From: Ignavibacteriales bacterium
GTDB lineage: Bacteria; Bacteroidota; Ignavibacteria; Ignavibacteriales; Melioribacteraceae
NCBI GenBank assembly: GCA_026390795.1
Contig: JAPLFG010000005.1
Location: 98,200 to 162,199, forward strand
Reading direction: 5' to 3'
Length of the DNA: 64,000 nt
The translations under genes and the position numbers were made by a program. Below are positions 1 to 25,476 of the stretch, piece after piece (within the stretch, counting starts at the first letter, position 1; each line of letters starts with the position of its first letter). Below the pieces are notes generated by a model. That model was not told where the DNA came from. It ran no database searches and saw nothing but the letters and a program-made list of their open reading frames with translations.

Positions 1-972
1 GGGATCCGTCTTTCTTAGAACTGCATGACCGAATCCAGGAATTACACCTGTCTCCAGAGTTTTGTAAACGAAAGCTTTAATATCTTCCTCTGTCGGAACT
101 TTTCCGCCCATTGATTCCATTACACCATGAAGCCATCTTAATACTTCTTCGTTTGCAAGACCATGTAATGGTCCGGCTAATCCATTTAACATTGCGCTGA
201 TAGCATAATACATATCAGAAAGTGCGCTTGCTACCAAATGACCGGTATGTGCGCTGACATTACCGCTTTCGTGATCGCTATGTAAAATAAAATACATTCT
301 TGCAACATCGTCGTAAGGTTTATCAATGCCCATCATGTGAGCAAAGTTTCCGCCAAAATCCAATTTAGGATCTGCGGCAATAATTTTACCATCACGGTAT
401 TTCAATCTATATATGAAAGCTGCAATCTCAGGAAGTTTTGCAAGGAGATCCATTGCGTCTTCGTAATAGGCTTCCCAATAATTTCCTTTTTTCAATCCTT
501 TATGATATTCTTTAGCAAAGACAGAATCTTTTTGCATACACATAATTGCAGTTGCCAACATAGTCATTGGATGAGAATCGAGAGGCATTGCACGAAGAAG
601 ATCAAATACATATGACGGAACAGTTTTTCTGCTATCGAATTCAGCTTTAACTTCAGCAACTTCTTTTTCAGTTGGAATGTCTCCCGTTAGAAGAAGATAG
701 AAAAATCCTTCAACAGAAGGCATTTCACTTCCGGCAACTTTGGGAAGTTTTTCAAATACTTCTGGAATTGTGAATCCTCGGAAACGAATTCCTTCAAAAG
801 GATCTAGATAAGAGATATCCGTCACAAGACTTTTGATATCACGCATACCGCCGATGATTTGACCAATTGTGACTTCATCAACTTTAACATTGCCGTATTC
901 TTTTAATAACTTTTCTGTTCTCGGACGTTCAGCTACTATTTTCTCGCGTAACTTATCCTTTAGGATGGACAT
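1..972 (-). CDS. gltA: citrate synthase, N-terminal 324 codons (3' end runs off the window)
   Basis: Absent from the ORF track because it is open at position 1. My minus-strand translation from ATG at 972 reads MSILKDKLREKIVAERPRTEKLLKEYGNVKVDEVTIGQIIGGMRDIK... and ends ...GVIPGFGHAVLRKTDP at the edge, which is the citrate synthase His signature. GGAGG sits at 978-982. Confidence 0.9.
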   Translation of the reverse strand, partial: MSILKDKLREKIVAERPRTEKLLKEYGNVKVDEVTIGQIIGGMRDIKSLVTDISYLDPFEGIRFRGFTIPEVFEKLPKVAGSEMPSVEGFFYLLLTGDIPTEKEVAEVKAEFDSRKTVPSYVFDLLRAMPLDSHPMTMLATAIMCMQKDSVFAKEYHKGLKKGNYWEAYYEDAMDLLAKLPEIAAFIYRLKYRDGKIIAADPKLDFGGNFAHMMGIDKPYDDVARMYFILHSDHESGNVSAHTGHLVASALSDMYYAISAMLNGLAGPLHGLANEEVLRWLHGVMESMGGKVPTEEDIKAFVYKTLETGVIPGFGHAVLRKTDP

Positions 973-3906: not shown

Positions 3907-4067
3907 ATGTTTTGGAAGGAAATAAGAAATTACCGGAAAATTTTCATAGTGGGATTTTGTAAAGAGAAGAGCCTGCTTGTATGCTGATTCTAATGAAATA
4001 GCCGCACCATTTTTATTTGTGTCCGGAACTGTCCGCGAAAGCGGATGTAACCCAAACTATTTATTAG

Positions 4068-4151
4068 TGCCCAAAAGGGGACTCGAACCCCTACGAGATT
4101 GCTCTCACTAGCTCCTGAAGCTAGCGCGTCTACCAATTCCGCCATCCGGGC
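4068..4151 (-). tRNA. tRNA-Leu (anticodon CAG), type II with long variable arm
   Basis: Minus strand reads GCCCGGA-TG-GCG-GAATTGGTAGA-CGC-G-CTAGC-TTCAGGA-GCTAG-TGAGAGCAATCTCGT-AGGGG-TTCGAGT-CCCCT-TTTGGGC-A. This gives a 7-bp acceptor (three G-U/A-U pairs at the base), GAGA/TCTC variable stem, GGTTCGAGTCC T-loop and anticodon CAG. Confidence 0.9.
4121..4151. repeat. 31-bp direct repeat, left copy (inside the intact tRNA-Leu, tRNA nt 1-31); putative att core
   Basis: ctagcgcgtctaccaattccgccatccgggc is identical to 25446-25476. The flanking bases differ on both sides. Confidence 0.85.
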
Positions 4152-4650: not shown

Positions 4651-6708
4651 CTACTTAATTATTAACATTTTCTTTAAGTCTGTAAATTTATTCGCTGTTA
4701 TTCTGTAAAAATAAACTCCGCTTGAAAAATTACTTGCGTTAAATTCTATTTCATGATTGCCAGCGGGTATTTCTTGATTAATTAAAGTTTTTACCTCTCG
4801 ACCAAGTACATCATAAATAATTAATTTTGTGAATGAAACTTCTGGCAAACTGAATTTTATTTTTGTTGAGGGGTTGAATGGATTTGGATAGTTTTGTTCA
4901 AGTACATAATTTATCGGGAAGATATTTTCATTATTTATGTCTGTAGTAAAATCTGATAGAAGGCGTTTCCAGACACCAGTATCATATGTAGCAGCAAATA
5001 GATATGTACTATTGACAGCGACAGGACCTACACCCTGACCATTTAAACCTAAGGCAGTCCAGCTTGTACCGTTGTTTGTTGAGAGAAAAACATTATTATA
5101 AGTACCTGCAAAGATATTAGAATTGCTGACTGCAAGAGACGTGATAAAAATATTTAAACCAGTATTGACAGCAGTCCAACTAGTTCCATTATTTGTTGAA
5201 AGAAAGACACCGTTGCCATAGGTTCCTGCAAATAGATTTGTGCCTTTAACAGCAAGAGATGTGATCGTTAAGTTTGTCAAACCATTATTTACTGCACTCC
5301 AACCTGTGCCGTTGTCTGCAGATAAAAACACACCGCTGTTATTTGTTCCGGCAAAGAGATTTGAGCCGTTGACGGCAAGACATTGAATGCCTTGATAGTC
5401 AAATGACAAACCATTATTTACAGCATTCCAGCTAGAGCCGTTGTTCATAGAAAGATAAACACCAGAATTGATTCCGGCAAAAATATTTGTGCCCTTAATG
5501 ACTAGTGAATAGACTACTGTATTATCTGGTTGCGGAAAACCATTATTAACGGCTGTCCAGCTTGTTCCTTTGTTTGTGGAAAGATAAACACCGGCTGCAT
5601 GTAGACCAGCAAAAAGATTTATACCGTCGAAGGCAAGAGAAGAGACATAAAAGTTAACAAACGCAACTACATTCCAGTTTATACCGTTGTTTGTTGAATG
5701 AAAGATATGTTTGTCCGATCCAGCATAGATATCTGTGCCGTAAATGGCAAAAGAATAAATATGGGTGTTTGTAAAACTAGTATTGAGAGTGACCCAGCTT
5801 GTGCCGTTGTTTGTTGATAAAAAAACACCACTGCCATCTGTTCCTGCAAAGAGATTTGTACCATTGAAGGCAAGAGTCGTGATCCAAGTATTCGTCAAAC
5901 CATTATTTAAAGAAGTCCAGTTTATTCCATTATTTGTGGAAAGATAGACGCCGCTGCTGGTTCCTGCAATTAGATTTGCACCATTGAAGAAAAGAGAATT
6001 GACCATTGCACCTGAAAAACCAATTGACGTCCAACTTGTTCCATTGTCTGTTGAAAGGAAAATACCGTCAATAGTTCCAGCATAAAGATTTGTACCTTGG
6101 ATGGCAAATGAATGTGTAATAGTATTCTTCAAACCAACAGAAGTCCAGTTTGCTCCGTTGTTTGTGGAAAGCCAGACTCCACTGCCAATAGTTCCTGCAA
6201 AGATATTTGTACCGTCAAAGGCAAAAGAATAAACACCATACACCCATGTCAATCCATTATTGACTTCAGTCCAACTTGTACCATTGTTTGTGGATAGATA
6301 GATGCCCCAATCAGTACCTGCAAATAGATTTGTACCATTGAAGGTAAGACGATAGACATTAGCTCCGGGTTTAAGACCATTATTGACCTCAGTCCAACTT
6401 GTTCCGTTGTTTGTGGAAAGATAAACGCCGGAATTGGTTCCTAAAAAAATATTTGTGCCTTTAATGGCAAGACTTTGGTACTTATGCGCTGAGCTCAACT
6501 GTAATCCATTATTGACCGCAGTCCAACTTGTTCCGTTGTTTGTGGAAAGCCAGACTCCACTATCCTCTGTGGCAGCAAAGATATTGGAACCAGAAAATGC
6601 GATATCCAGAACTACATCACCATAAGGCCCTGTTCGAGTCCATTGTGCTTGCGCCATACTTGTTACTAAAATAAAGCAAGTAAGGAAATGAAAAAATATT
6701 TTATTCAT
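4651..6708 (-). CDS. secreted repeat protein (13 BNR/Asp-box-like STNNGTSWT repeats) with T9SS C-terminal sorting domain
   Basis: 685 aa. Signal peptide MNKIFFHFLTCFILVTSMAQAQ. 13 repeats of G-V-[YFW]-L-S-T-N-N-G-T-S-W-T-x-V-N-N-G-L. C-terminus is NYPNPFNPSTKIKFSL...IYDVLGREV...GVYFYRI. Confidence 0.85.
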   Translation of the reverse strand: MNKIFFHFLTCFILVTSMAQAQWTRTGPYGDVVLDIAFSGSNIFAATEDSGVWLSTNNGTSWTAVNNGLQLSSAHKYQSLAIKGTNIFLGTNSGVYLSTNNGTSWTEVNNGLKPGANVYRLTFNGTNLFAGTDWGIYLSTNNGTSWTEVNNGLTWVYGVYSFAFDGTNIFAGTIGSGVWLSTNNGANWTSVGLKNTITHSFAIQGTNLYAGTIDGIFLSTDNGTSWTSIGFSGAMVNSLFFNGANLIAGTSSGVYLSTNNGINWTSLNNGLTNTWITTLAFNGTNLFAGTDGSGVFLSTNNGTSWVTLNTSFTNTHIYSFAIYGTDIYAGSDKHIFHSTNNGINWNVVAFVNFYVSSLAFDGINLFAGLHAAGVYLSTNKGTSWTAVNNGFPQPDNTVVYSLVIKGTNIFAGINSGVYLSMNNGSSWNAVNNGLSFDYQGIQCLAVNGSNLFAGTNNSGVFLSADNGTGWSAVNNGLTNLTITSLAVKGTNLFAGTYGNGVFLSTNNGTSWTAVNTGLNIFITSLAVSNSNIFAGTYNNVFLSTNNGTSWTALGLNGQGVGPVAVNSTYLFAATYDTGVWKRLLSDFTTDINNENIFPINYVLEQNYPNPFNPSTKIKFSLPEVSFTKLIIYDVLGREVKTLINQEIPAGNHEIEFNASNFSSGVYFYRITANKFTDLKKMLIIK
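5030..6560 (-). repeat. in-frame tandem coding repeats (~40-45 codons each, 13 copies)
   Basis: Recurrent LSTNNGTSWT-type blocks in the 4651..6708 translation. These are coding repeats, not a CRISPR array. Confidence 0.8.
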
Positions 6709-6963
6709 AATAGTCTCACTACTGCAAGTATATCAGATTCTTTATATCCCAAAAATTTTTATCACCATTTGGAGCTATGGCCTCAATTTTACACCGACCT
6801 GCCCCCGAATTAAAGTTAGAAAAGTTAAGTTAGTTTTATTTTAATATCAACCACTGGCAACTCATCCGTCTAGCACGGATCGGTCAAGAATTTTTTTATC
6901 CTCTTGCTTTTTTACTTATTAAAGAGGTTAGCCAGCGACTCGTCACAAGCCAAGACGGCCGCC

Positions 6964-7344
6964 CTAGGGGTCTCGTTGGAATAACTTGTCAAGTACCGCC
7001 TTCTCAGTGGCCGCCTGCTGGCGCGCACGTTCCGCAAACGCCAATGAGAGTTTTCCATCTATCCACCTCCTGAGATGCGCCTGGGACTCTGGCGATGTGT
7101 CACTGGAATAGCGACGAAAGAGCCCCGAGAGTTTGATCCAGCATGACCACACTTCGGTACCGGTGTAAGTGCCGATACGGGTTTCATCGTCCCACCCAAA
7201 CTCCAGGCTGAGCCCGTTTGAGCATTCCGCACTCACCTTATTACTAAGAGTCCCGCAAGTATATTCGAGCCGATTCGCCGAATTCCAAGACAGCTCAAGT
7301 TGGTCGATGCGCTCTAGGATCACGACCAGTTCTTTATCGATCAT
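6964..7344 (-). CDS. hypothetical protein on a compositionally foreign GC-rich segment
   Basis: 126-aa ORF with GGAGG at 7351-7355. Hand counts give 35/60 G+C for 6961-7020 and 34/60 for 7021-7080, against 19/60 for 7441-7500. No recognisable motif. Confidence 0.55.
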   Translation of the reverse strand: MIDKELVVILERIDQLELSWNSANRLEYTCGTLSNKVSAECSNGLSLEFGWDDETRIGTYTGTEVWSCWIKLSGLFRRYSSDTSPESQAHLRRWIDGKLSLAFAERARQQAATEKAVLDKLFQRDP

Positions 7345-7361
7345 GTTCTTCCTCCGGTCTG

Positions 7362-7389
7362 ACTAACAGCGTTGTGCCTAAGCCGAAGC
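7362..7389 (-). repeat. GC-rich ~28-nt element, copy a (18-45 nt upstream of the 126-aa ORF start)
   Basis: CTAACAGCGTTGTGCCTAAGCCGAAGCC aligns with ATAACGGCGTTGCGTTTAAGCGGACGCC at 10003-10030, 21 of 28 identical with no gaps. Confidence 0.6.
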
Positions 7390-7520
7390 CCAACACAACT
7401 ATTTTTATTTTATTGACTAACTTTTATTTCGAACATACTTTCATTTACAAACTACGTTAAACAAAAAACTGAATCGGAACTACGAACTATCAAATTGCAC
7501 AAATGCCAAATGCGAAAACT

Positions 7521-7545
7521 GCGTCCGCTTTATTGGCTGGTTATA
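7521..7545 (+). repeat. GC-rich element, copy e (inverted; ends 5 nt from the ATPase stop codon)
   Basis: GCGTCCGCTT-TATTGGCTG-GTTATA. The reverse complement of 10002-10029 is GCGTCCGCTT-AAACGCAACGCC-GTTATA, so a 10-nt and a 6-nt terminal block are identical. Confidence 0.6.
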
Positions 7546-7550
7546 CGTAA

Positions 7551-9284
7551 CTATCCAGATATATATTCATCAGCAGCATTTTTAATGAATTTCGATCTAA
7601 CTTCACCTATATAATTAATAGTCATTAGTTCTTTCCTTGTTGAATGAATGACATCACCAACTGTTTTGAATTTAACTATAATCCTCTTAGCAATCTTTTT
7701 GCTAATTGACATTTCATCAATAGAATCCTCTAGAAGAGTTCCTATTATTGATTTTTCTTCTACTTTTGTCCCACAACTCGGGCAAAATTTTGCGTCGGTT
7801 GGCAATTCCAAATTACAGTTTGAACAATCTTCATTTGTTGATTTAAGAGCGATTAGATATTCATCAATGCTAGGATCGTTTGAAGAAAACTCTCTATAAT
7901 CTGTCAAACTAATCATTCGCATAATATCATTGAGCTTGTTGGTAATAAATGCTTTTTCAGTATAAAGAAGTGCTAGATGAACCATGTATCGTTGCCCGGT
8001 TTGTCTTGAAGCAATTTTTATTGTTCCTTGACGTGTAAGAATTCCAGAATAGCATAATAAGTCTAAAGACAATTTTAAATTTGGAGATACACCTCTTTCA
8101 ATTGTAAAAAAAGCCGATTGATATTTTGTTTTTTTCTCACGTAAATTTTTCTTTTTGATTTCCGGTATAATATAGTCACGTAATAATTTTAAACCGATTT
8201 TTACGTGATGCGCATATTTGGGCAATCTTTTGGATAAACCATTATGATAAGGGAGTAATTCTTCATCAACAAATTCCTGCGTTGCTAATAAAAGTGAGCG
8301 TTCAGAAAATCCTTTTTCATGAACTCGATTAAATAGGTGGAGAAAAGCTCTAGGATTTCCGGAGGACAAATCAATGCAGTTATCAAGTAATTCACCACTG
8401 CTAAATATTTCTTTTTTTAGTTGATTATTATTAGGTATACGATTAGTAAGTAAGTTGCGAAATAATTTTCTCGTATTGAACCGTCCAGCTAAACCAGGTT
8501 CAAACCTACCTAATTCGATTTGAATTGCATCTTGCCCGACTTCGAAGTTTCTACCATATGATGTTATGCTTGGATAAACAGCGGCTTTGACAGCAACTTT
8601 TCCGCCATGAAGAAGTTTGAATATTTCAAAAAATATTTCTTGTTGTTTTGGAATGAAGGTATGAGCAGCTTCATCAAATAGAAATATGAGTCTTTCAATT
8701 TTATATTCTTTTATAATATCCCTTATTATACTATTTATATATGTGATATCGTTTACTTTGTTAATAAACTCTTTTCCTAATTTTGTAATAATTTCTCCGT
8801 GATCTCCCTTCTGAGATAATTGCTGTAATAGATGAATTTTCTCTTGAAGAGTTTCTTTTAATCCTTGTGATCCAACTACATCAAATATTCTCTTAAATGG
8901 ATCAGCAACTGTAGCACTTGATATTAAATCAAGTTCAACAAGTTTTTCGTAAGTAGCTTGCAATATTTTAGCCCCAACCCAGATTTGAAACGCATCATTA
9001 TTTCCAGCTTTAACTCCTTCTAAAAGAGTACTTGTTTTAAAATTTACATAGATGGCTAATATTCTATTGTCATTAAAGCTACTATCTAGACTCACTTCTG
9101 CGGCTTTCATTAACATAGATTTACCAATTCCCCTTGCACCTTGCAAAAGATGAGCTCCGGCTAAGGAAAGCTTATTCACGATTTCTTGTTCAAAATCTCC
9201 AAACACCATTAATTTCATTATTTGCGAATCCTCTAGGTCTTCTGTCCTAGCAGCGTGTAAAAGATCAAGTTCATTACTAGACAT
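7551..9284 (-). CDS. ORC/Cdc6-like (AAA_16/AAA_22-type) P-loop ATPase with C-terminal zinc ribbon and helix-hairpin-helix-like tail
   Basis: 577 aa. Walker A is LQGARGIGKSML and Walker B is RLIFLFDEAAH. CSNC-x10-CPSC zinc ribbon. C-terminal ISKKIAKRIIVKFKTVGDVIHSTRKELMTINYIGEVRSKF resembles an RpoA-CTD-type HhH. 8-nt overlap with the upstream gene. Confidence 0.7.
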   Translation of the reverse strand: MSSNELDLLHAARTEDLEDSQIMKLMVFGDFEQEIVNKLSLAGAHLLQGARGIGKSMLMKAAEVSLDSSFNDNRILAIYVNFKTSTLLEGVKAGNNDAFQIWVGAKILQATYEKLVELDLISSATVADPFKRIFDVVGSQGLKETLQEKIHLLQQLSQKGDHGEIITKLGKEFINKVNDITYINSIIRDIIKEYKIERLIFLFDEAAHTFIPKQQEIFFEIFKLLHGGKVAVKAAVYPSITSYGRNFEVGQDAIQIELGRFEPGLAGRFNTRKLFRNLLTNRIPNNNQLKKEIFSSGELLDNCIDLSSGNPRAFLHLFNRVHEKGFSERSLLLATQEFVDEELLPYHNGLSKRLPKYAHHVKIGLKLLRDYIIPEIKKKNLREKKTKYQSAFFTIERGVSPNLKLSLDLLCYSGILTRQGTIKIASRQTGQRYMVHLALLYTEKAFITNKLNDIMRMISLTDYREFSSNDPSIDEYLIALKSTNEDCSNCNLELPTDAKFCPSCGTKVEEKSIIGTLLEDSIDEMSISKKIAKRIIVKFKTVGDVIHSTRKELMTINYIGEVRSKFIKNAADEYISG

Positions 9285-9981
9285 TATCTACATCTCCGAA
9301 GTATTTTTCAACTGAAGAATAAGCTCTGATTAATTCGGTGCGGCTGTTAAATCTAATCATATACATATGTAAAAGTAGCTGGGCTATTTCAATTACAATA
9401 TCAATTAAGTCATTCCAATCTTTTTCAAGATATGAATATTTTGATTCCAATTCAGTTTCGAATGTTTTAATTTTCCCGTGTACTGTGTCACTTAATTGAC
9501 CATATATTCTATTTGTCTTTTTAGCATCAATTAGCTTTTTGATTTCTAAATAATTGTTTTCCTCTTTAACAAAATGGATAAAACCATCTGCACAAAGGTG
9601 TGAAAGCATTTCAGAGAAACTTAAATCCTTTTCTAAAATGTCCCAAGAGTACAGAAAATGGGGCATATCCCATAAGTATACTACAGCAACACCTAATTCA
9701 AGTGCACGTCTTAAAACAATCATTGCTGGCTTATCTAAAGAATTTGCCGCCAGATAAATACTTATTGACATATCAGCAAAAATTTCATCGAAAATATTAC
9801 AACATCTAATTTGATGTTTTTGTAAATCTCGTTTGCGTAATATCTGTCCTATTTCAGCTATACCTTTAATTAGTGAAAAAGCTTTAGGAAGTTCTTTGTT
9901 GTCAGCTTCCATACTTAAGACAAAATTATTAGAGAATTTCTGATGCAAGCCATTCAATATTTCTTTTGGTTTTTCTTTCAT
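9277..9981 (-). CDS. all-alpha hypothetical protein, weak HEPN/DUF4145-like signature
   Basis: 234 aa. LRRALELGVAVVY followed about 75 residues later by YGQLSDTVHGKI. Translationally coupled to the ATPase gene (overlap 9277-9284). The family assignment is tentative. Confidence 0.6.
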   Translation of the reverse strand: MKEKPKEILNGLHQKFSNNFVLSMEADNKELPKAFSLIKGIAEIGQILRKRDLQKHQIRCCNIFDEIFADMSISIYLAANSLDKPAMIVLRRALELGVAVVYLWDMPHFLYSWDILEKDLSFSEMLSHLCADGFIHFVKEENNYLEIKKLIDAKKTNRIYGQLSDTVHGKIKTFETELESKYSYLEKDWNDLIDIVIEIAQLLLHMYMIRFNSRTELIRAYSSVEKYFGDVDNV

Positions 9982-10001
9982 ATTACCTAAATTATTTTAC
10001 A

Positions 10002-10029
10002 TATAACGGCGTTGCGTTTAAGCGGACGC
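10002..10029 (-). repeat. GC-rich element, copy b (fills the 55-nt gap between the res stop and the 234-aa gene start)
   Basis: See copies a and e. Contains a GGCGT...ACGCC 5-bp stem. Confidence 0.6.
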
Positions 10030-10036
10030 CACTTTA

Positions 10037-12634
10037 TTATAAAACAGTTAACTCATTCATCAAACTTGATCTCCAATTTTCATATCTGTTTTCTCTAAGT
10101 GCCTGGAAAAATTCTGTTATATCTTCCGGAGAAAGAAAATAGAAATAATATTTCCATCCTTTTTTTTCAGTGGACAATAATTCACTAAGTTTTTCAAAAT
10201 GAGCTTTCCCATCACGATATTTCGCTCTATTCTTCTGGGAAGAATCTCCATCAGCTTTTATCTCAACGACCAATATTTCGTTTTTGTCTTTTAACTTAAA
10301 AAAGAAATCGGGATTGAAGTTTTCCCTTTTCACATGTGAACTTCCATCATCTGTTGGTTTGTATGAGTATGGGAAGTAATAGAAATTTTTATCGGGTGAT
10401 TTTATAAAGCAATCTATCTTTTCGATGTTGTTGAAAATAGATGTTGTGAATTTGTATTCCGGTGTTGATGAAACATAAATTAAATTAAGGGGTGTTTTGA
10501 AGATTTCTTCTTTTTGCTCAATAAGATTTTCTCTCAGATATTTTATCTCATCTTCACTTCTACCAGCTAATCTTACTATAGTATCTCTAACACGATCATA
10601 ATTTTGCTTGTCATATAAGAATTGATTAAAAAGAGTTTTCTGTTCTGATGAAAGTGATTTCGGTGAAGATTTAGTGTAAAATACTTTACTATTTGTCTTA
10701 ATGCTATTTTCGCTAAATGATTGTGCAGCCATCTCCTCAATTTTAATTTCTCTCAATGCTTTCGGCACCATTTTCATTCGTGCTGCAACTTTGCCAAGTT
10801 CTCGGAACATCGGACCGAAAGCTTGTTTGGCTGTACCAAGATTTTCGCGGGTTATGAATGATGAATCGTATCCCTTGCTTTCTAAATTAGATTTAAGCAA
10901 TTCTTGAATTTTTTTCAGTGTCCATTTTTTTGAAAGAGTTTCGTCCTTTGCTTTTAGGAACAGCTTAATTTCTTTTGAAGCTTCTTCAATAGTAATAGCA
11001 TCTTTCATTTCTACTGAGAATTTGAATAACCCGGTTTCAGAATATTTGCTCGTTTCATCCCAAGTTTTGCTTTGCGGGTTAAATTTTATTTCCGAAGGTT
11101 CTGAAGCGGTTTCTCTTTTTGCTTCTGTTGTATCTTGTTCTGATGAATATTCTAAATTATATAATGGAGAAAGATATTGCTTTCGGTTTGAGTCATAACC
11201 CCAATTTATTCTGTTTTCAATTTCTAAAACTTCGTTGTAAAGATTACGTATTTCATCTGTCCAACTTTCATGATTATTTATTTTTACATAAATGGGTTGC
11301 GTTAAGCCGGGAGGAACTCTCAAGCCTCTGCCAAGAACTTGTGATATAAGAAGTTTTGAATTAAATGCTCTTTGCTCGTGTGGTACAATTTGAAAAACAT
11401 TTTTAACGTCCCATCCTTCTGTAAGCATAGAAACGGAAATTATCCATTCAACCGGATTATCTGGTTCGTCAACTGTTTTTAGTATAGCAAGGTTTTCTTT
11501 TCTTACTTTTTCTGGTTGAGAAATTATTGATTCAATCTCGGTTTTTTCTCTTTCATTAGAAGGAATGCCGGAAGTAACCCAAATTGCTTTTGTTGCAGCT
11601 TCTTCATAAGAAATCTTTTCTTTATCTGAAATAAATTTTACGAGTTCATCCCATACTTTTATACAAGAATGAATCTTCTCCGTAATTATAATTGTGATTG
11701 GTTTTAGCTTACCGGCATATTTTTTTTGATTTTCTATGTGATTAGCATAAGTCTCTGAAAATCCTTTTTCCTTCTGCGATTCTTCTTCAACTTTATAATC
11801 AATCTTTTTAATTATACCGTCTTCCATAGCTTGCTTTAAACTATAACGGTAAATTACATCGAAGAAGTAATCATTGTTTATATAAGGAGTGCCGGACAGA
11901 CCAAGCAGATAATAAAAATTATATTCGGGATCGGTTAAAAACTCAAACCATTTTTTTACTGCTGAATCTGCTTCGCTGTAAATATGATGAGCTTCATCAC
12001 TTATTACGAGTGTTCTTCTTCCTTTTCCTTTGAAGCTGTCCGAGATGGATGATCCGGTTCTTTGATATGCGGCGTGAATATTTTCGATGCAAATATCGCC
12101 TTCCAAAATCGGAACGTTTGCGTTTTTTATTGCGGGTGAAGGATAGGGTGAATTTAACTCTTGTAATATTTTAGTAAGAACTTGATCTCCGCTGAACAAT
12201 TCAAATTTCTTTTTTAATTCTTCTTCAATTGTAAGTGAAGGGCACAAAACTAATACTTTATCAACAAGCCCTTCTGAAAGCATAATTACAGCAACCGAGT
12301 AAATCACCCAGCTTTTACCAGTTCCTGTTGCTAAATCTATGCTGAATGATTTTTTGTCTCTTATCTTAAATTTGTTCAGGTAATCATCAATGCTGCTGAA
12401 ATGAATTTTAAGATTTTCAGAATCAGCATAAGTATATCTTGAGGCATCTTCGGTATTCTTAAAATCATTTGAAAGAAAATATGCGAAAGCTGTTCGTGCG
12501 GCTTCCCTTAGATGTTCAAAATTATTCGTCGTAAGGGCATCCAGAAAAGAGTCATACTTGTAAACAAGCAGATTATTTTTTTCTTCTTCCTTTAACTTTA
12601 GAATTAGATCTTCGTTTTTGAATTGTAGGGGCAT
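10037..12634 (-). CDS. res: Type III restriction enzyme Res subunit (SF2 DEAH helicase plus C-terminal PD-(D/E)xK nuclease)
   Basis: 865 aa. Motif I DLATGTGKSWV, motif II VISDEAHH, motif III GLSGTP. C-terminal FNPDFFF...ILVVEIKADGD nuclease motif. Lies directly downstream of mod. Confidence 0.85.
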   Translation of the reverse strand: MPLQFKNEDLILKLKEEEKNNLLVYKYDSFLDALTTNNFEHLREAARTAFAYFLSNDFKNTEDASRYTYADSENLKIHFSSIDDYLNKFKIRDKKSFSIDLATGTGKSWVIYSVAVIMLSEGLVDKVLVLCPSLTIEEELKKKFELFSGDQVLTKILQELNSPYPSPAIKNANVPILEGDICIENIHAAYQRTGSSISDSFKGKGRRTLVISDEAHHIYSEADSAVKKWFEFLTDPEYNFYYLLGLSGTPYINNDYFFDVIYRYSLKQAMEDGIIKKIDYKVEEESQKEKGFSETYANHIENQKKYAGKLKPITIIITEKIHSCIKVWDELVKFISDKEKISYEEAATKAIWVTSGIPSNEREKTEIESIISQPEKVRKENLAILKTVDEPDNPVEWIISVSMLTEGWDVKNVFQIVPHEQRAFNSKLLISQVLGRGLRVPPGLTQPIYVKINNHESWTDEIRNLYNEVLEIENRINWGYDSNRKQYLSPLYNLEYSSEQDTTEAKRETASEPSEIKFNPQSKTWDETSKYSETGLFKFSVEMKDAITIEEASKEIKLFLKAKDETLSKKWTLKKIQELLKSNLESKGYDSSFITRENLGTAKQAFGPMFRELGKVAARMKMVPKALREIKIEEMAAQSFSENSIKTNSKVFYTKSSPKSLSSEQKTLFNQFLYDKQNYDRVRDTIVRLAGRSEDEIKYLRENLIEQKEEIFKTPLNLIYVSSTPEYKFTTSIFNNIEKIDCFIKSPDKNFYYFPYSYKPTDDGSSHVKRENFNPDFFFKLKDKNEILVVEIKADGDSSQKNRAKYRDGKAHFEKLSELLSTEKKGWKYYFYFLSPEDITEFFQALRENRYENWRSSLMNELTVL

Positions 12635-20700: not shown

Positions 20701-20785
20701 TATTGTCTTTTAGATTCTTTTAGAATCTTTTAGTCGATTTCTATGGCTGTAACTCATTGCAAATAAAGAAGTTATAAAACGCCTT

Positions 20786-20856
20786 GACACCCAAATGATT
20801 ACTTTTTTCCCTTATTTGACACCCAAATGATTACTACTAGCACCCAAATGATTACT
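20786..20856 (+). repeat. three direct iteron-like repeats CACCCAAATGATTACT
   Basis: Copies at 20788-20803, 20820-20835 and 20841-20856 (the first two extend to GACACCC...). Copies 2 and 3 lie inside the last codons of the 374-aa gene and encode the repeated SNHLG. Confidence 0.8.
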
Positions 20857-21936
20857 TTTTATATCGCTGTCCAACTCCTTAACATCACTCTTAACCTTGA
20901 TATGGATAACCGTGTTCTCCAACTCAGAGGGGCTTAAGTTGGTTAGGTTGGCTACTGATGGGCTGATCTCCGAAATAATAGCAATTTCAGCCAATGCTTT
21001 CAAAAATTCTGCTTTCCGTTTAGTTGCACGTCCGGAATTTATATTCATAACCCACATAAACCTCTTTACGGTGAACGCCACTACCTTATAATCCTTGTCA
21101 TTCAGTTGTACATTTCCCTGTTCAGCAATCAGATAATTGGTCAATAAATAAGCAGCTGTTGAGTATTCCCTTGTCGCTGAAATGATTGAGGTTGGGTAGG
21201 ATAAATAACCTCGTTCAAACATTTCAGGAGTGTTTCCCCGTTTATCATTAAACAATGAACTCACACAGCCAACAAATTTCATATTTACATCAATGATATA
21301 TCCTTTCGGAGTTTCAACAACGTTGTAAATGAAATTTCCAAATGCTTTGTATCTCGGATCAATCTTTGTCTTGTTCCGGTATTTAAATATTTGATAGTTG
21401 AGCCAGGTTAGTGAAAACATGGCATCACTTATATCTCTATAAATGTTTTTTTCCGATGATGAATATCCTAGCCAATCCCGCATTTCATGTTTAGAAATTT
21501 CCAGTTGTGTAAAAGTCCTTTTTTCATAAACCTTTGACAAAATCACGAGCACTAAACGATGAGCCAACTTAAACAACCTAACCCTCTTTAGTCCATCTTC
21601 AACAGGATCAGTACAATGGGTTTTTTTATCTAACAGTTCGGTTTCAATTTTTCCGATATAGTCAGCATACATATTTGCACTGAAGGCAATCGCGTAATCG
21701 CCAAAATCACGAACTACGAAATTTGTTGATCTGTATTGCCCCGCTGCTGTTAAGGCGCTACGTTGGAGCTCGGGAGTCAGCTCAGCGACTCCCAATCTCT
21801 TTCTTTCTGTTTCCAGTATCTCCTCTTTAATCGGTAAAGAGAGGTAATTTGAAAAAATCCCTTTATGCATTAACATCGGCAAAAAATCTTGCATGGTTGA
21901 TCTGTCTATTCTGACAATTGGATATTTTTCTTTCAT
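20812..21936 (-). CDS. putative replication initiator-like protein (hypothetical)
   Basis: 374-aa ORF, 1-nt overlap (TAATG) with the primase-helicase gene. Iterons sit at and just past its 3' end. The assignment is by context only. Confidence 0.45.
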   Translation of the reverse strand: MKEKYPIVRIDRSTMQDFLPMLMHKGIFSNYLSLPIKEEILETERKRLGVAELTPELQRSALTAAGQYRSTNFVVRDFGDYAIAFSANMYADYIGKIETELLDKKTHCTDPVEDGLKRVRLFKLAHRLVLVILSKVYEKRTFTQLEISKHEMRDWLGYSSSEKNIYRDISDAMFSLTWLNYQIFKYRNKTKIDPRYKAFGNFIYNVVETPKGYIIDVNMKFVGCVSSLFNDKRGNTPEMFERGYLSYPTSIISATREYSTAAYLLTNYLIAEQGNVQLNDKDYKVVAFTVKRFMWVMNINSGRATKRKAEFLKALAEIAIISEISPSVANLTNLSPSELENTVIHIKVKSDVKELDSDIKSNHLGASSNHLGVK

Positions 21937-23801
21937 TAGTCAAGCTCACCTCCAGATTCTACTTCGTCGGATTGTGTTGTACTAGTATTACTAACTCCAA
22001 TTTGAAGGTTGTTTTCTTCCATTGTGCCAGTAGCTCTAATGAAAATAAGATCCTGAATTCCCTTATAGTCGGAAAGTTTGTTTTTAACAAATTCCATTTT
22101 AATTGCGCATTGATCCTCTTTTAATTGATCTACGTTGAGTGGATACAACAATAAAACCACACTAGCGTTGTAAGCATATTTCCCGGTCTCATTTATGTCA
22201 CTGAGTGTCGGTTTTTTATTTTTACTATCTGTATTAGATCTCTTGCGCAATTCACCTGTAGCTATTACGGGGATTTTACATTTGTCAACTAATTCCTTAA
22301 TTGTTTGAGCCCTTTTAATATTCTCAATCCGAATTCCTTCCCCGGCTTCTACATTTAGATTATACATGCCGTCTATGAACACCACTAAATTTTCAAATGA
22401 TCCGATTGAAGTTAAAGTATCTAATACTTGGTCTATGTGGTTTAAGTCTCCTAAGTCCTTCATGATCAATCTTCCAGTATCTACGAGATCAAGGATCAGT
22501 TCTCTTTTTGCATTTAATGTATTCTGATCGTTAGGATCCGGGCAAGCTTTGATAACATTATTAATATTAAATTTAGTCAGAATGCTGATTAATCTATTTA
22601 CTGTATAGAACTTATTGTCATCCATAGAAAAATGAACAATTTTCAACTGAGGATTTGTAAGAAGTAAATCCAGTTCAAGATTAGTCAACAATGCAGTTTT
22701 ACCAACATTTGATTCTGCAGCAATTAAGTAAAAGCCAGGTTGTACACCATCTAAATTTTTGGCTAGCGCTTTGAATTTATCTAATTTATATCCAATAAGT
22801 TCATTGGGATCACGAGTGTCATAGAAGGCAAATTTTTCTCGTAATTCATCCCCAAATGATTTTGGCACAGCCGGTTGAGAAATGATCGTGGGGGATTCAG
22901 ATTGATTGGAATATTCAAAACCATAACTTTTTGCTATTGCGAATAATGTTGCAAGATCAATCTCTCCAGTTGCAGTTTGAACAAAGTTTTCAAATTTTTC
23001 ATCAACGTATTCAAAGGAATCATTGTAACTTGGATTCGAAGAAAGAATATGGAAGTAACTCCGGCCTTCGTCACCTAAACTGGCAAGAGCGAATCCGCAC
23101 TTCATCCATTCAGCATACCCATTTAGTTTTTCTCGCAGAAAGTTTACAGCATTGTATACGTATTTCGTTTTGCTTTTATCGACTTGGTGAAAATTAATGG
23201 GGGTAGTTTTGGTTGTACTTTGTGGTTTCTGAGTTACTTGAATATCACTTACAACTATCGGAACTGCATTATCATTTACATACAAGTCTAGATCATAGCT
23301 TAGAAAACAAGTACGTGATACATTCTTTGTAACTTCATCCGCATTTACGCCGTATTCAATTTCCTTTCTCTCTTTATATTTCAGATAAACAGCGGTGTAG
23401 TGCTCAGCAGATGTAACTGGTTTTTCAAATACGTATCCGACTTTAATTCCGTCTCCGCTTGGAGACCGAAACGCAAAGTAAGCTTCTGAATCTTGTATGA
23501 TCTTTTCCCATAGAACAGCGTATTGTTCTCCAACGTGATCAAAGTCTAAGATCATCATTTCAGCAGTTATCAAATTTTCAGCAGTTCGAATTCCATTTGT
23601 AAATGTTGCACCTACAAAGTATGGTAGCAAGATTACCTTTGCGTCTCTTCGTTCATTATCAGTTTCTAATTGTCTAATTCGTTCAACGTTTTCTTTTAAT
23701 GTTTTGTCAGTTCTAATTTGTTCAAAAATGTTTGAAATAGATGTTACCTCTACAGCATTGGATTTAACGCTGTCCCCAGAGGAAATGTTAAAATTATTCA
23801 T
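21936..23801 (-). CDS. primase-helicase (BT4734/VirE-N-like primase domain plus DnaB/RepA-like P-loop helicase domain)
   Basis: 621 aa. N-terminal MMILDFDHVGE...AFRSPSGDGIKVGY. C-terminal Walker A AAESNVGKTALL and Walker B LVVFIDGMYNL. Confidence 0.7.
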   Translation of the reverse strand: MNNFNISSGDSVKSNAVEVTSISNIFEQIRTDKTLKENVERIRQLETDNERRDAKVILLPYFVGATFTNGIRTAENLITAEMMILDFDHVGEQYAVLWEKIIQDSEAYFAFRSPSGDGIKVGYVFEKPVTSAEHYTAVYLKYKERKEIEYGVNADEVTKNVSRTCFLSYDLDLYVNDNAVPIVVSDIQVTQKPQSTTKTTPINFHQVDKSKTKYVYNAVNFLREKLNGYAEWMKCGFALASLGDEGRSYFHILSSNPSYNDSFEYVDEKFENFVQTATGEIDLATLFAIAKSYGFEYSNQSESPTIISQPAVPKSFGDELREKFAFYDTRDPNELIGYKLDKFKALAKNLDGVQPGFYLIAAESNVGKTALLTNLELDLLLTNPQLKIVHFSMDDNKFYTVNRLISILTKFNINNVIKACPDPNDQNTLNAKRELILDLVDTGRLIMKDLGDLNHIDQVLDTLTSIGSFENLVVFIDGMYNLNVEAGEGIRIENIKRAQTIKELVDKCKIPVIATGELRKRSNTDSKNKKPTLSDINETGKYAYNASVVLLLYPLNVDQLKEDQCAIKMEFVKNKLSDYKGIQDLIFIRATGTMEENNLQIGVSNTSTTQSDEVESGGELD

Positions 23802-24231: not shown

Positions 24232-25248
24232 CTATCCTAGATCAAGAGTTTCCACTGCACCGCGTAGATCTTCAGTTCTTAAATGCGAATAAATCATCGT
24301 AGTTTTAATATCAGCGTGCCCTAGGAGTTTTGAAACAATAAAAATGGAGACTCCCTTTTGGACAAGCGTACTAGCAAAGGAATGTCTAAGAGTATGAAAA
24401 TGATACACATCATTTAACTTAGCTGCTCTAACAGCTCTCTTAAAACCTAAAGTTAATAGATAATCTCTAATGACTGTTCCATTCCGCATGAATACATATT
24501 CTTCATTATTCTTTTTATCTCGCAGACCAAGTAATTCAATCATTAATTTCGGATGGATTGGAATAACGCGGGATCTTTTACTCTTCGTTGTAAATTCATT
24601 ATGGTTTTGGACATTTATAACATTAGTTGAAAAATCTATTGCATCCCACCTGATGTATCGTATCTCAGATAACCGCATTCCTGTATAAATCGCCATTGTA
24701 TAAACTGATTTTAATTGAGCGTCTTCTTCCACCTCATAAATTTTGTCAAATTCTCCCGCCTGTAAAAAGATTGGTTTGTTCTCCGCGAATTTGAGTTTCC
24801 TTACTTTTGCAAATACATTTTCTTTTAGATAGTTGAATTCAACAGCTCTCTGAAATGCTGCTTGTAGTGTTCTCAAATATCCATTAATTATCCTTGCTTT
24901 TGCTTCAGTTAGCTTTAGACTAATGAATGCTTCAACGTTTGCGGTCTTAATATTTCTTATCGGAATTGAACTAGATATAACTCTGTTGAATTGTGAAAAA
25001 GCTGTGCAAACAAATTCTTGGTAACTGGGAGTAAATCTGGTTGTTGCATACTTGGAATAAAAACTTTCGAATTGCTCGAAAGTTAAATCTAAATGTTTTG
25101 ACTCTTCAATTTTGGGGGAGTTAGTAAAATCTTGTAAAAATTTGTTCGCTTCAGCTTTTGTTGTGCATTTGGTACTGATACTTGTTTCTTTTCCATTTTC
25201 ATCTTTGTAAAATAAATGAAAAATTTTGTTACGCTTGATAAGGTACAT
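24232..25248 (-). CDS. int: tyrosine-type site-specific recombinase/integrase
   Basis: 338 aa. Catalytic motifs TGMRLSEI, HTLRHSFAS and LLGHADIKTTMIYSHL (R...HxxR...H...Y). Starts 198 nt from the right-hand repeat. Confidence 0.9.
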   Translation of the reverse strand: MYLIKRNKIFHLFYKDENGKETSISTKCTTKAEANKFLQDFTNSPKIEESKHLDLTFEQFESFYSKYATTRFTPSYQEFVCTAFSQFNRVISSSIPIRNIKTANVEAFISLKLTEAKARIINGYLRTLQAAFQRAVEFNYLKENVFAKVRKLKFAENKPIFLQAGEFDKIYEVEEDAQLKSVYTMAIYTGMRLSEIRYIRWDAIDFSTNVINVQNHNEFTTKSKRSRVIPIHPKLMIELLGLRDKKNNEEYVFMRNGTVIRDYLLTLGFKRAVRAAKLNDVYHFHTLRHSFASTLVQKGVSIFIVSKLLGHADIKTTMIYSHLRTEDLRGAVETLDLG

Positions 25249-25445: not shown

Positions 25446-25476
25446 CTAGCGCGTCTACCAATTCCGCCATCCGGGC
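25446..25476. repeat. 31-bp direct repeat, right copy (orphan 5' fragment of tRNA-Leu); putative att core
   Basis: Identical to 4121-4151. No remainder of the tRNA follows it. Confidence 0.85.

Follow-up and report, generated by a model that had tools for sequence, protein, structure and literature searches.

What do two overlapping minus-strand genes encode that lie behind a Type III restriction-modification (R-M) system in an Ignavibacteriales bacterium, and what are the short inverted repeats that bracket them? The locus belongs to a stretch of 64,000 nucleotides of contig JAPLFG010000005.1 (GenBank assembly GCA_026390795.1, positions 98,200 to 162,199 of the forward strand), hereafter called the window. 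A preliminary description of this DNA had proposed the two genes as a candidate undescribed defence system. We think it somewhat probable that the pair is a self-contained, horizontally mobile anti-phage defence module, in which, by analogy with known systems, an ATPase encoded by the larger gene would sense and the small protein would be the effector. A defence role is likely, and the case for it rests on genomic context, on mobility and on an independent machine-learning prediction. Because the pair is found in known anti-phage hotspots and matches no named system, it is a good candidate for a new defence system.

Both genes, the 8-nt overlap of their reading frames and the 55 nt that separate the small gene from the res stop (10037) lie where the preliminary description had placed them (Table 1). 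The motifs that it quoted (LRRALELG, LSDTVHGK, GARGIGKS, LIFLFDEAAH and CSNC-x10-CPSC) are each found in the translations, and Pfam and PADLOC both identify the adjoining mod and res genes as Type III R-M. The 8-nt overlap suggests translational coupling. A pair from Clostridium butyricum, whose ATPase is 26% identical, also overlaps by 8 nt, and in the other loci with readable starts the two genes either overlap by up to 8 nt or are separated by a short gap. Expression of the module probably depends on read-through, or else on the short spacer that precedes it.

The larger gene encodes an AAA+ ATPase of the ORC/Cdc6-STAND type, whose C-terminal part carries a winged helix, a Cys4 zinc ribbon and a helix-hairpin-helix (HhH) tail. 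Residues 11-265 match Pfam PF24389 (ORC-CDC6-like) with 37.0 bits against a cutoff of 27 (E 2.3e-9), and PF24389 is present in all of the homologs among the matches listed. Pfam also detects Zn_Ribbon_1 (E 9e-7) and, weakly, HHH_5 (E 0.006). The AlphaFold model has helices in the lid, bundle and tail, in addition to an AAA+ core, a winged-helix-like unit and the ribbon. Its best Foldseek match is the archaeal Cdc6/Orc1 structure 2qby_B (E 6.5e-5), followed by Apaf-1, ORC4 and RdrA. The earlier assignment of an ORC/Cdc6-type ATPase with a zinc ribbon and HhH tail is thus borne out by Pfam and Foldseek. In an alignment of 56 homologs, invariant columns cover the Walker A and B motifs, the GNPR motif, the four ribbon cysteines and much of the C-terminal tail, and the mean column identity across phyla is 73%. 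Neither Pfam nor Foldseek finds a nuclease or other effector domain in the ATPase. When profiles of both proteins were compared with PDB chain sequences, the zinc ribbon was the sole match, and phage genomes and PHROGs hold no relatives except for zinc-ribbon matches.

The small partner is predicted to be all-alpha, with 12 helices in an AlphaFold2 (AF2) model of high confidence (pLDDT, predicted local distance difference test, 94.7). Twelve residues are invariant among 63-66 homologs (F16, N19, E66, D70, R91, W104, W113, L120, S164, H168, G169 and K170). Seven of these are polar or charged, and R92, E95, D105, D117 and D119 are near-invariant polar residues. Its fold matches nothing in PDB or in BFVD (viral predicted structures) at E <0.05, and its sequence profile has no significant match among PDB chains. 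A DUF5677 signal of 17.9 bits, below the Pfam cutoff of 27.1, covers about 45 residues; it recurs faintly in 22 of 63 homologs (best E 1.5e-4), and a distant kinship with DUF5677 is possible. A full-library profile search returned only 287 representative clusters, nearly all of them stand-alone proteins of 215-245 aa. The sole large multi-copy relative in this search is P0290, a protein of 1766 aa in which eight separate stretches match profile residues 137-181.

The preliminary description had read the small protein as HEPN/DUF4145-like, a putative RNase. Identity as a HEPN RNase is not supported, given the Pfam result, a missing arginine and a poor fold match. At E up to 0.1, Pfam matches neither HEPN nor DUF4145. 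Although H168 is invariant, the window protein and its clade have a glycine in place of the arginine of the HEPN Rx6H motif. The Rx4-6H arginine site (seven residues before H168) lies outside the 90%-conserved columns and is variable elsewhere. The best structure for a HEPN fold, 4nqf, reaches an E of 0.19 and template modelling (TM) scores of 0.31/0.46.

Comparison across genomes indicates that the two genes are a conserved, self-contained module. A survey in which one genome per species was scanned returned 45 loci, and in 41 of them the small gene directly precedes the ATPase gene in the same orientation. The four exceptions are two loci without upstream DNA and two degraded ATPase remnants, so that the pair is syntenic in 41 of 43 informative genomes. 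The expected co-occurrence of both genes' homologs therefore holds across about ten phyla: Pseudomonadota, Campylobacterota, Desulfobacterota, Nitrospirota, Acidobacteriota, Verrucomicrobiota, Cyanobacteria, Bacillota, Bacteroidota and Fibrobacterota. ATPase homologs are 58-71% identical in very distant bacteria, and synteny is kept even where the ATPase is only 26-28% identical, namely on a megaplasmid of Clostridium butyricum and a plasmid of Planktothrix. Cross-phylum identity of this order, together with varied insertions, reflects the kind of mobility that defence genes typically have. All 36 of 36 loci show faster divergence of the small protein (37% identity) than of the ATPase (59%). 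The small gene or the ATPase is split or frameshifted in some genomes (L011, L059, L062 and L063), so loss of the pair is tolerated. For one Actinomycetota remnant a partner is not detectable.

Where homologs occur elsewhere, their surroundings include recognised defence hotspots: the P4 psu-int locus, a satellite-like element and a SIR2-HerA island. In Kosakonia and Serratia the pair sits between Psu/Delta and the integrase of P4-like satellites. This psu-int locus is a reservoir of antiviral systems (PMC9122126), and six of eight randomly picked unknown occupants of the slot protected Escherichia coli from phages (PMC13586616). In E. coli TUM9757 the pair (WP_061352521.1 and WP_061352522.1) is the last part of a satellite-like element, and in Leclercia/Enterobacter it adjoins SIR2+DUF87(HerA) and ResIII genes beside vsr. 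Vibrio, Alcanivorax and Paenibacillus carry it alone amid housekeeping genes. For the E. coli ATPase, WP_061352522.1, DefensePredictor gives a log-odds of 9.56 and the label 'Predicted novel defense gene' (PMC13092281, Table S10). The earlier statement that no named system is matched also holds. PADLOC v2 matches neither protein nor any of 63 small-protein homologs, and NCBIfam (2026, including DS-41) has no model for either (DS41_1 scores 24 bits against a cutoff of 370). Direct repeats bracket the pair at two loci. Those in Paenibacillus (L004) are 108 nt long and 92% identical (6800-6907 and 9884-9991). Those in Methylophilus (L023) are about 220-260 nt long (9017-9275 and 11903-12125) and include the small gene's initial codons; this copy of the pair is directly preceded by a 21-nt tandem array.

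The inverted repeats of the window show how the pair is carried here. The 10-mer GCGTCCGCTT has exactly two copies in the 64 kb, one inverted relative to the other: 7521 (+) and 10020 (-). They are accompanied by the hexamers GTTATA (7540-7545) and TATAAC (10002-10007). Between flanks of 55 and 80 nt, an exact inverted match of 10 nt was attained in 41 of 5000 randomly drawn window pairs and in 24 of 5000 shuffles; since this is less than 1%, the observed match is unlikely to be due to chance. On an unrelated contig (L007) the pair is 94.7% identical to that of the window, and homology covers only 7540-10007, ending at both hexamers. The preliminary description was right that the repeats are present and that the module is delimited; the repeats are not, though, the two ends of one element. 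At L007 2880-3000 there is no attC past an R''-like GTATAAC, and unrelated genes adjoin.

The 27 nt that end at the upstream hexamer recur, 78% identical, at 7364-7390 before the next open reading frame (ORF). A degenerate 27-nt pattern covering both window copies matched 65 metagenome loci (L067-L131), in which conservation ends at GTTA and is followed by unrelated ORFs. The metagenome element is about 182 nt long and reaches upstream to TAAC-NN-GTGCCTCAAGCCGAAAGC. Its copies are arranged in tandem on one strand, with up to 5-6 sites per array at intervals of 0.6-4 kb, and the cassette ORFs in related arrays point towards their attC. Fifteen long-range pairs are predicted between its arms, nine of them with compensatory changes, and each site's own arms are more complementary (14.1/16) than those of mismatched sites (12.1/16). 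The family arrays, the palindrome of about 182 nt and the covarying arms identify the inverted repeats as parts of integron attC sites. The two copies of the 10-nt repeat thus belong to successive attC sites, as the L' arm of the first and the L'' arm of the second, and the hexamers are R'/R'' cores. At 182-186 nt, the family appears long beside other attC sites. It has at least two subtypes, with several L''/L' hybrid sites, and the contigs that bear it (e.g. L078, L119, L096, L089 and L076) are AT-rich, carry the Type 9 Secretion System (T9SS) and are Ignavibacteria/Bacteroidota-like.

Both attC sites of the window depart from a regular array. The upstream one is a remnant whose 27-mer matches the 3' end of the metagenome 'type B' family, and nothing aligns further upstream. 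The site downstream of the ATPase gene is of full length, has a conserved, AT-rich centre and is a hybrid, with a type-B-like L'' and a type A L'. Its single strand is predicted to fold with unpaired ends (z = +0.39), and it may be inactive. The cores R' GTTATAT and R'' GTATAAC are complementary, each one position off the strict GTTRRRY / RYYYAAC. A second cassette follows, with no full attC after its R''-like GGCTAAC. Its ORF126 (6964-7344) has 53.5% GC, against 35% for the window, and no match in Pfam, NCBIfam, PADLOC or PHROGs. The window holds no integron integrase; its sole recombinase (24232-25248) is Xer-like and scores 78 bits against the TIGR02249 cutoff of 265. Without IntI, the arrangement resembles a cluster of attC sites lacking integron integrases (CALIN). 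On these sequence features the module is a gene cassette in a two-cassette, integrase-less integron remnant, and its layout agrees with that of cassettes from related arrays. Integron cassettes with phage defence systems are documented (10.1101/2024.07.02.601719). Like CALIN and integron cassettes, the window has R'/R'' flanks and its attC family has L''/L' pairing and tandem arrays; it differs in lacking IntI, in its truncated upstream attC and in the hybrid, poorly folding attC of its own.

The same attC family was not found around the pair in other genomes. In L022 and L025 (Nitrospirota and Ectothiorhodospiraceae) the pair is flanked by canonical-looking cores of its own, GTTAGGT and ACCTAAC. 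Contigs from several Logan samples (L012-L019) end at window position 10003/10031 and again at 6901, 63 nt past ORF126; such assembly breaks at cassette junctions suggest presence/absence variation in natural populations, or repeats. Two other accounts of the repeats were rejected. Insertion into the loop of a res-terminator hairpin is not backed by a significant local hairpin (z = -1.24) and is unneeded because the attC family was found. Xer/dif-module sites do not fit L007, which lacks the conserved outer arms, and the spacers are 9-12 nt long and unrelated.

How might such a module act? By analogy, the three nucleic-acid-binding modules of the ATPase would recognise phage DNA or a replication or transcription intermediate. 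The ATPase would then oligomerise in an ATP-dependent manner, as ORC/Cdc6, STAND proteins and RdrA do. In this oligomerised form it would activate or release the small partner, a putative enzymatic effector, which would stop the infection, probably by abortive infection or nucleic-acid damage. A broader proposal, for which we see about even chances, is that the pair represents a widespread new defence family. Here an ORC/Cdc6-like DNA-sensing ATPase would control an effector with a new all-alpha enzymatic fold, possibly a minimal stand-alone DUF5677, and the family would spread as an integron cassette, as an occupant of satellite hotspots and as a naked two-gene insertion.

Several observations weigh against a defence module with these roles. 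The sensor and effector roles are assigned by analogy only, and faster evolution of the small protein fits a sensor role equally well. Fold and profile searches of PDB and BFVD assign the small protein to no catalytic family, and the confidence of the ATPase model is moderate (pLDDT 70.5). The E. coli homolog is absent from the tested tables of DefensePredictor (PMC13092281), and the searched literature holds no description of the pair and no phenotype for any member. A single DUF5677 ORF tested in Enterococcus faecalis gave no protection (PMC12632615). Pooled neighbours from 17 loci mix defence and ordinary genes: among 122 neighbour ORFs scanned with PADLOC and Pfam there are a few methyltransferases, restriction endonucleases, MADS, PIN and AbiEii-like genes among many housekeeping genes, and these are family counts only.

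A defence module with reversed roles we consider unlikely. The small protein would be a sensor, a specificity subunit or a decoy for phage inhibitors. The ATPase, clamped on DNA by its winged helix, zinc ribbon and HhH, would act as effector and might, for instance, block the replication or transcription of the phage. The consistently faster divergence of the small protein, the lack of an enzymatic fold for it in PDB and BFVD, and the unusual constraint on the ATPase, with its high column identity and invariant C-terminal tail, would all be consistent with this arrangement. It is opposed by the 12 invariant residues of the small protein, seven of them polar or charged as an active site would need, and by an ATPase that carries no nuclease or other effector domain.

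A toxin-antitoxin (TA)-like addiction or stabilisation cassette is improbable. It would hold integron arrays, satellites and islands in place and have no specific anti-phage role. A two-gene, translationally coupled, promoter-proximal module would suit it, as would the occurrence as an integron cassette and the TA genes that adjoin the pair on one plasmid. However, neither protein resembles a known toxin or antitoxin in Pfam, PADLOC or NCBIfam, a multi-domain ATPase of 577 aa is atypical of TA pairs, stand-alone chromosomal copies amid housekeeping genes have no obvious thing to stabilise, and pseudogenised copies show that loss is tolerated.

Still less credit is due to a function in replication initiation or DNA maintenance, with an ORC/Cdc6-like initiator and an accessory loader or regulator. 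The ATPase has the fold and Pfam family of origin-recognition proteins, and integrative elements and satellites do carry the pair. These carriers, however, have replication genes of their own (the P4 alpha primase; here a Rep3-like gene and a primase-helicase), and the pair occupies their variable cargo slot rather than the core. Chromosomal copies also stand alone, the cassette copy is of the promoterless type, and no iterons or origin-like repeats accompany the pair.

We give almost no credence to a reading, already contradicted, in which the repeats would be the inverted termini of a transposon or of an element like a miniature inverted-repeat transposable element (MITE), or Xer/dif-type sites, and would move the pair. 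In its favour are the inverted 10-nt and 6-nt matches on both sides and the end of L007 homology at the hexamers. Against it, the mobile unit does not include the 10-nt arms, which L007 lacks, and there is neither a target-site duplication nor a transposase. The 27-nt element also stands before ORF126, which is unrelated, and before dozens of other unrelated ORFs in 65 metagenome loci. There it forms the 3' end of a 182-nt site whose copies lie in tandem in direct orientation and show compensatory L''/L' pairing.

A defence module of this composition fits a known kind, the ATPase-plus-partner defence cassette on mobile elements, with a partner whose fold is uncharacterised. With RADAR (RdrA/RdrB), BrxC/DUF499 of BREX-related systems and Avs/NLR-like systems the pair shares a large AAA+ ATPase of the ORC/Cdc6-STAND clade and C-terminal helical and winged-helix modules. 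RdrA, like Apaf-1, is among the top five fold matches of the ATPase, and RADAR-type systems are likewise two-gene operons on mobile elements. The NLR part of Rst_TIR-NLR is the nearest remote homolog of the ATPase according to DefensePredictor (PMC13092281). Unlike RADAR, BREX and Avs systems, the pair has no deaminase, TIR, nuclease or BREX partner and no PADLOC matches; its ATPase ends in a zinc ribbon and HhH tail instead of repeats or a coiled coil, and its partner is an all-alpha protein of 234 aa without a fold match. DitA of Aditi carries DUF5677 (PMC13092281, Table S5). The pair and Aditi (DitA/DitB) are alike in having two genes, the DUF5677 signal, faint in the pair, and a mechanism that is not established for either. 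In DitA, however, DUF5677 covers residues 276-427 of a larger protein whereas the 234-aa protein is stand-alone, and PADLOC models of Aditi match neither protein nor any of the 63 homologs. Among occupants of the P4 psu-int locus (PARIS, Rst systems, Bandua, Aernus, Toga, Reve and others), the pair fills the exact same slot in Kosakonia and Serratia; its domain content differs from that of every described one.

The two cassettes of the window are themselves cargo of a larger element. PBP1A, at 100% identity, marks the host as an Ignavibacteriales metagenome-assembled genome. A perfect 31-nt direct repeat at 4121-4151, inside tRNA-Leu (4067-4151), and at 25446-25476 bounds a 21.3-kb integrative element at this tRNA gene. 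These repeats and the tyrosine recombinase confirm that the module lies within an integrated island, as the preliminary description had said. Other cargo includes DUF4365, DUF932 and Mu Gam genes and the Type III R-M system. The gene for the T9SS-sorted protein has repeat units (BNR/Asp-box-type) spaced about 114-129 nt start-to-start, plus multiples of this distance. Three 20-nt direct repeats, TTGACACCCAAATGATTACT, two of them exact, extend over the stop codon of the Rep3-like gene (20784-20856) and look like iterons of the element's origin.

Table 1. Features of the two-gene module, its cassette and the surrounding element. Nucleotide positions refer to the window and residue numbers to the ATPase.
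Feature	Position	Strand	Details or basis
Small-partner gene, 234 aa	9277..9981	(-)	ORF call and translation
ORC/Cdc6-like AAA+ ATPase gene, 577 aa	7551..9284	(-)	ORF, Pfam, AF2 model, Foldseek
8-nt overlap of both reading frames	9277..9284	(-)	ORF coordinates
ATPase Walker A	residues 49-56		invariant G49, R51, G52, G54, K55, S56
ATPase Walker B	residues 199-206		invariant D204, E205
ATPase GNPR sensor-2-like lid motif	residues 309-312		G309-N310-P311-R312 invariant
ATPase winged helix	residues ~392-444		fitting helix-strand pattern in AF2 model
ATPase Cys4 zinc ribbon	C487/C490/C501/C504		all four cysteines invariant
ATPase C-terminal HhH-like domain	residues ~515-577		weak HHH_5
Gene cassette, 2640 nt	7367..10006	(-)	TT of upstream R' to G of downstream R'
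Truncated upstream attC	10001..10031	(-)	starts 6 nt past res stop; matches 'type B' attC 3' end
Parts of truncated attC	R' core 10001-10007		L' arm GGCGTCCGCTT, spacer AAACGCAACGCC, R' core GTTATAT; nothing else left
Full-length cassette attC, 186 nt	7361..7546	(-)	aligns throughout with 51-member 'type A' consensus
Cassette attC, R'' side	7540-7546; 7521-7530		core GTATAAC; L'' arm AAGCGGACGC
Cassette attC, R' side	7374-7390; 7361-7367		L' arm GGCTTCGGCTTAGGCAC; core GTTAGTC
Second cassette (ORF126)	6927..7366	(-)	R' TTAGTC start, R''-like GGCTAAC (6927-6933) end
Type III res, 865 aa	10037-12634		Pfam ResIII and PADLOC REase_III
Type III mod, 819 aa	12573-15032		Pfam N6_N4_Mtase and PADLOC MTase_III
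T9SS-sorted BNR-repeat protein gene	4651-6708		cargo within integrative element
Rep3-like gene	20812-21936		
Primase-helicase	21936-23801		
Tyrosine recombinase/integrase gene, Xer-like	24232-25248		next to distal 31-nt repeat

To our knowledge, integrons have been little studied in Ignavibacteria-like genomes, and the present work documents a long, well-conserved attC family in them. Defence cargo of the kind proposed here moves among integron arrays, phage satellites and integrative islands across phyla. The versions in E. coli, Kosakonia and Serratia reside in P4-type satellites, which makes the pair amenable to testing. If the pair protects against phages, it would be a compact system of two genes whose effector fold is unexplored and whose sensor is of the origin-recognition type, and it may offer a functional handle on DUF5677 and Aditi.

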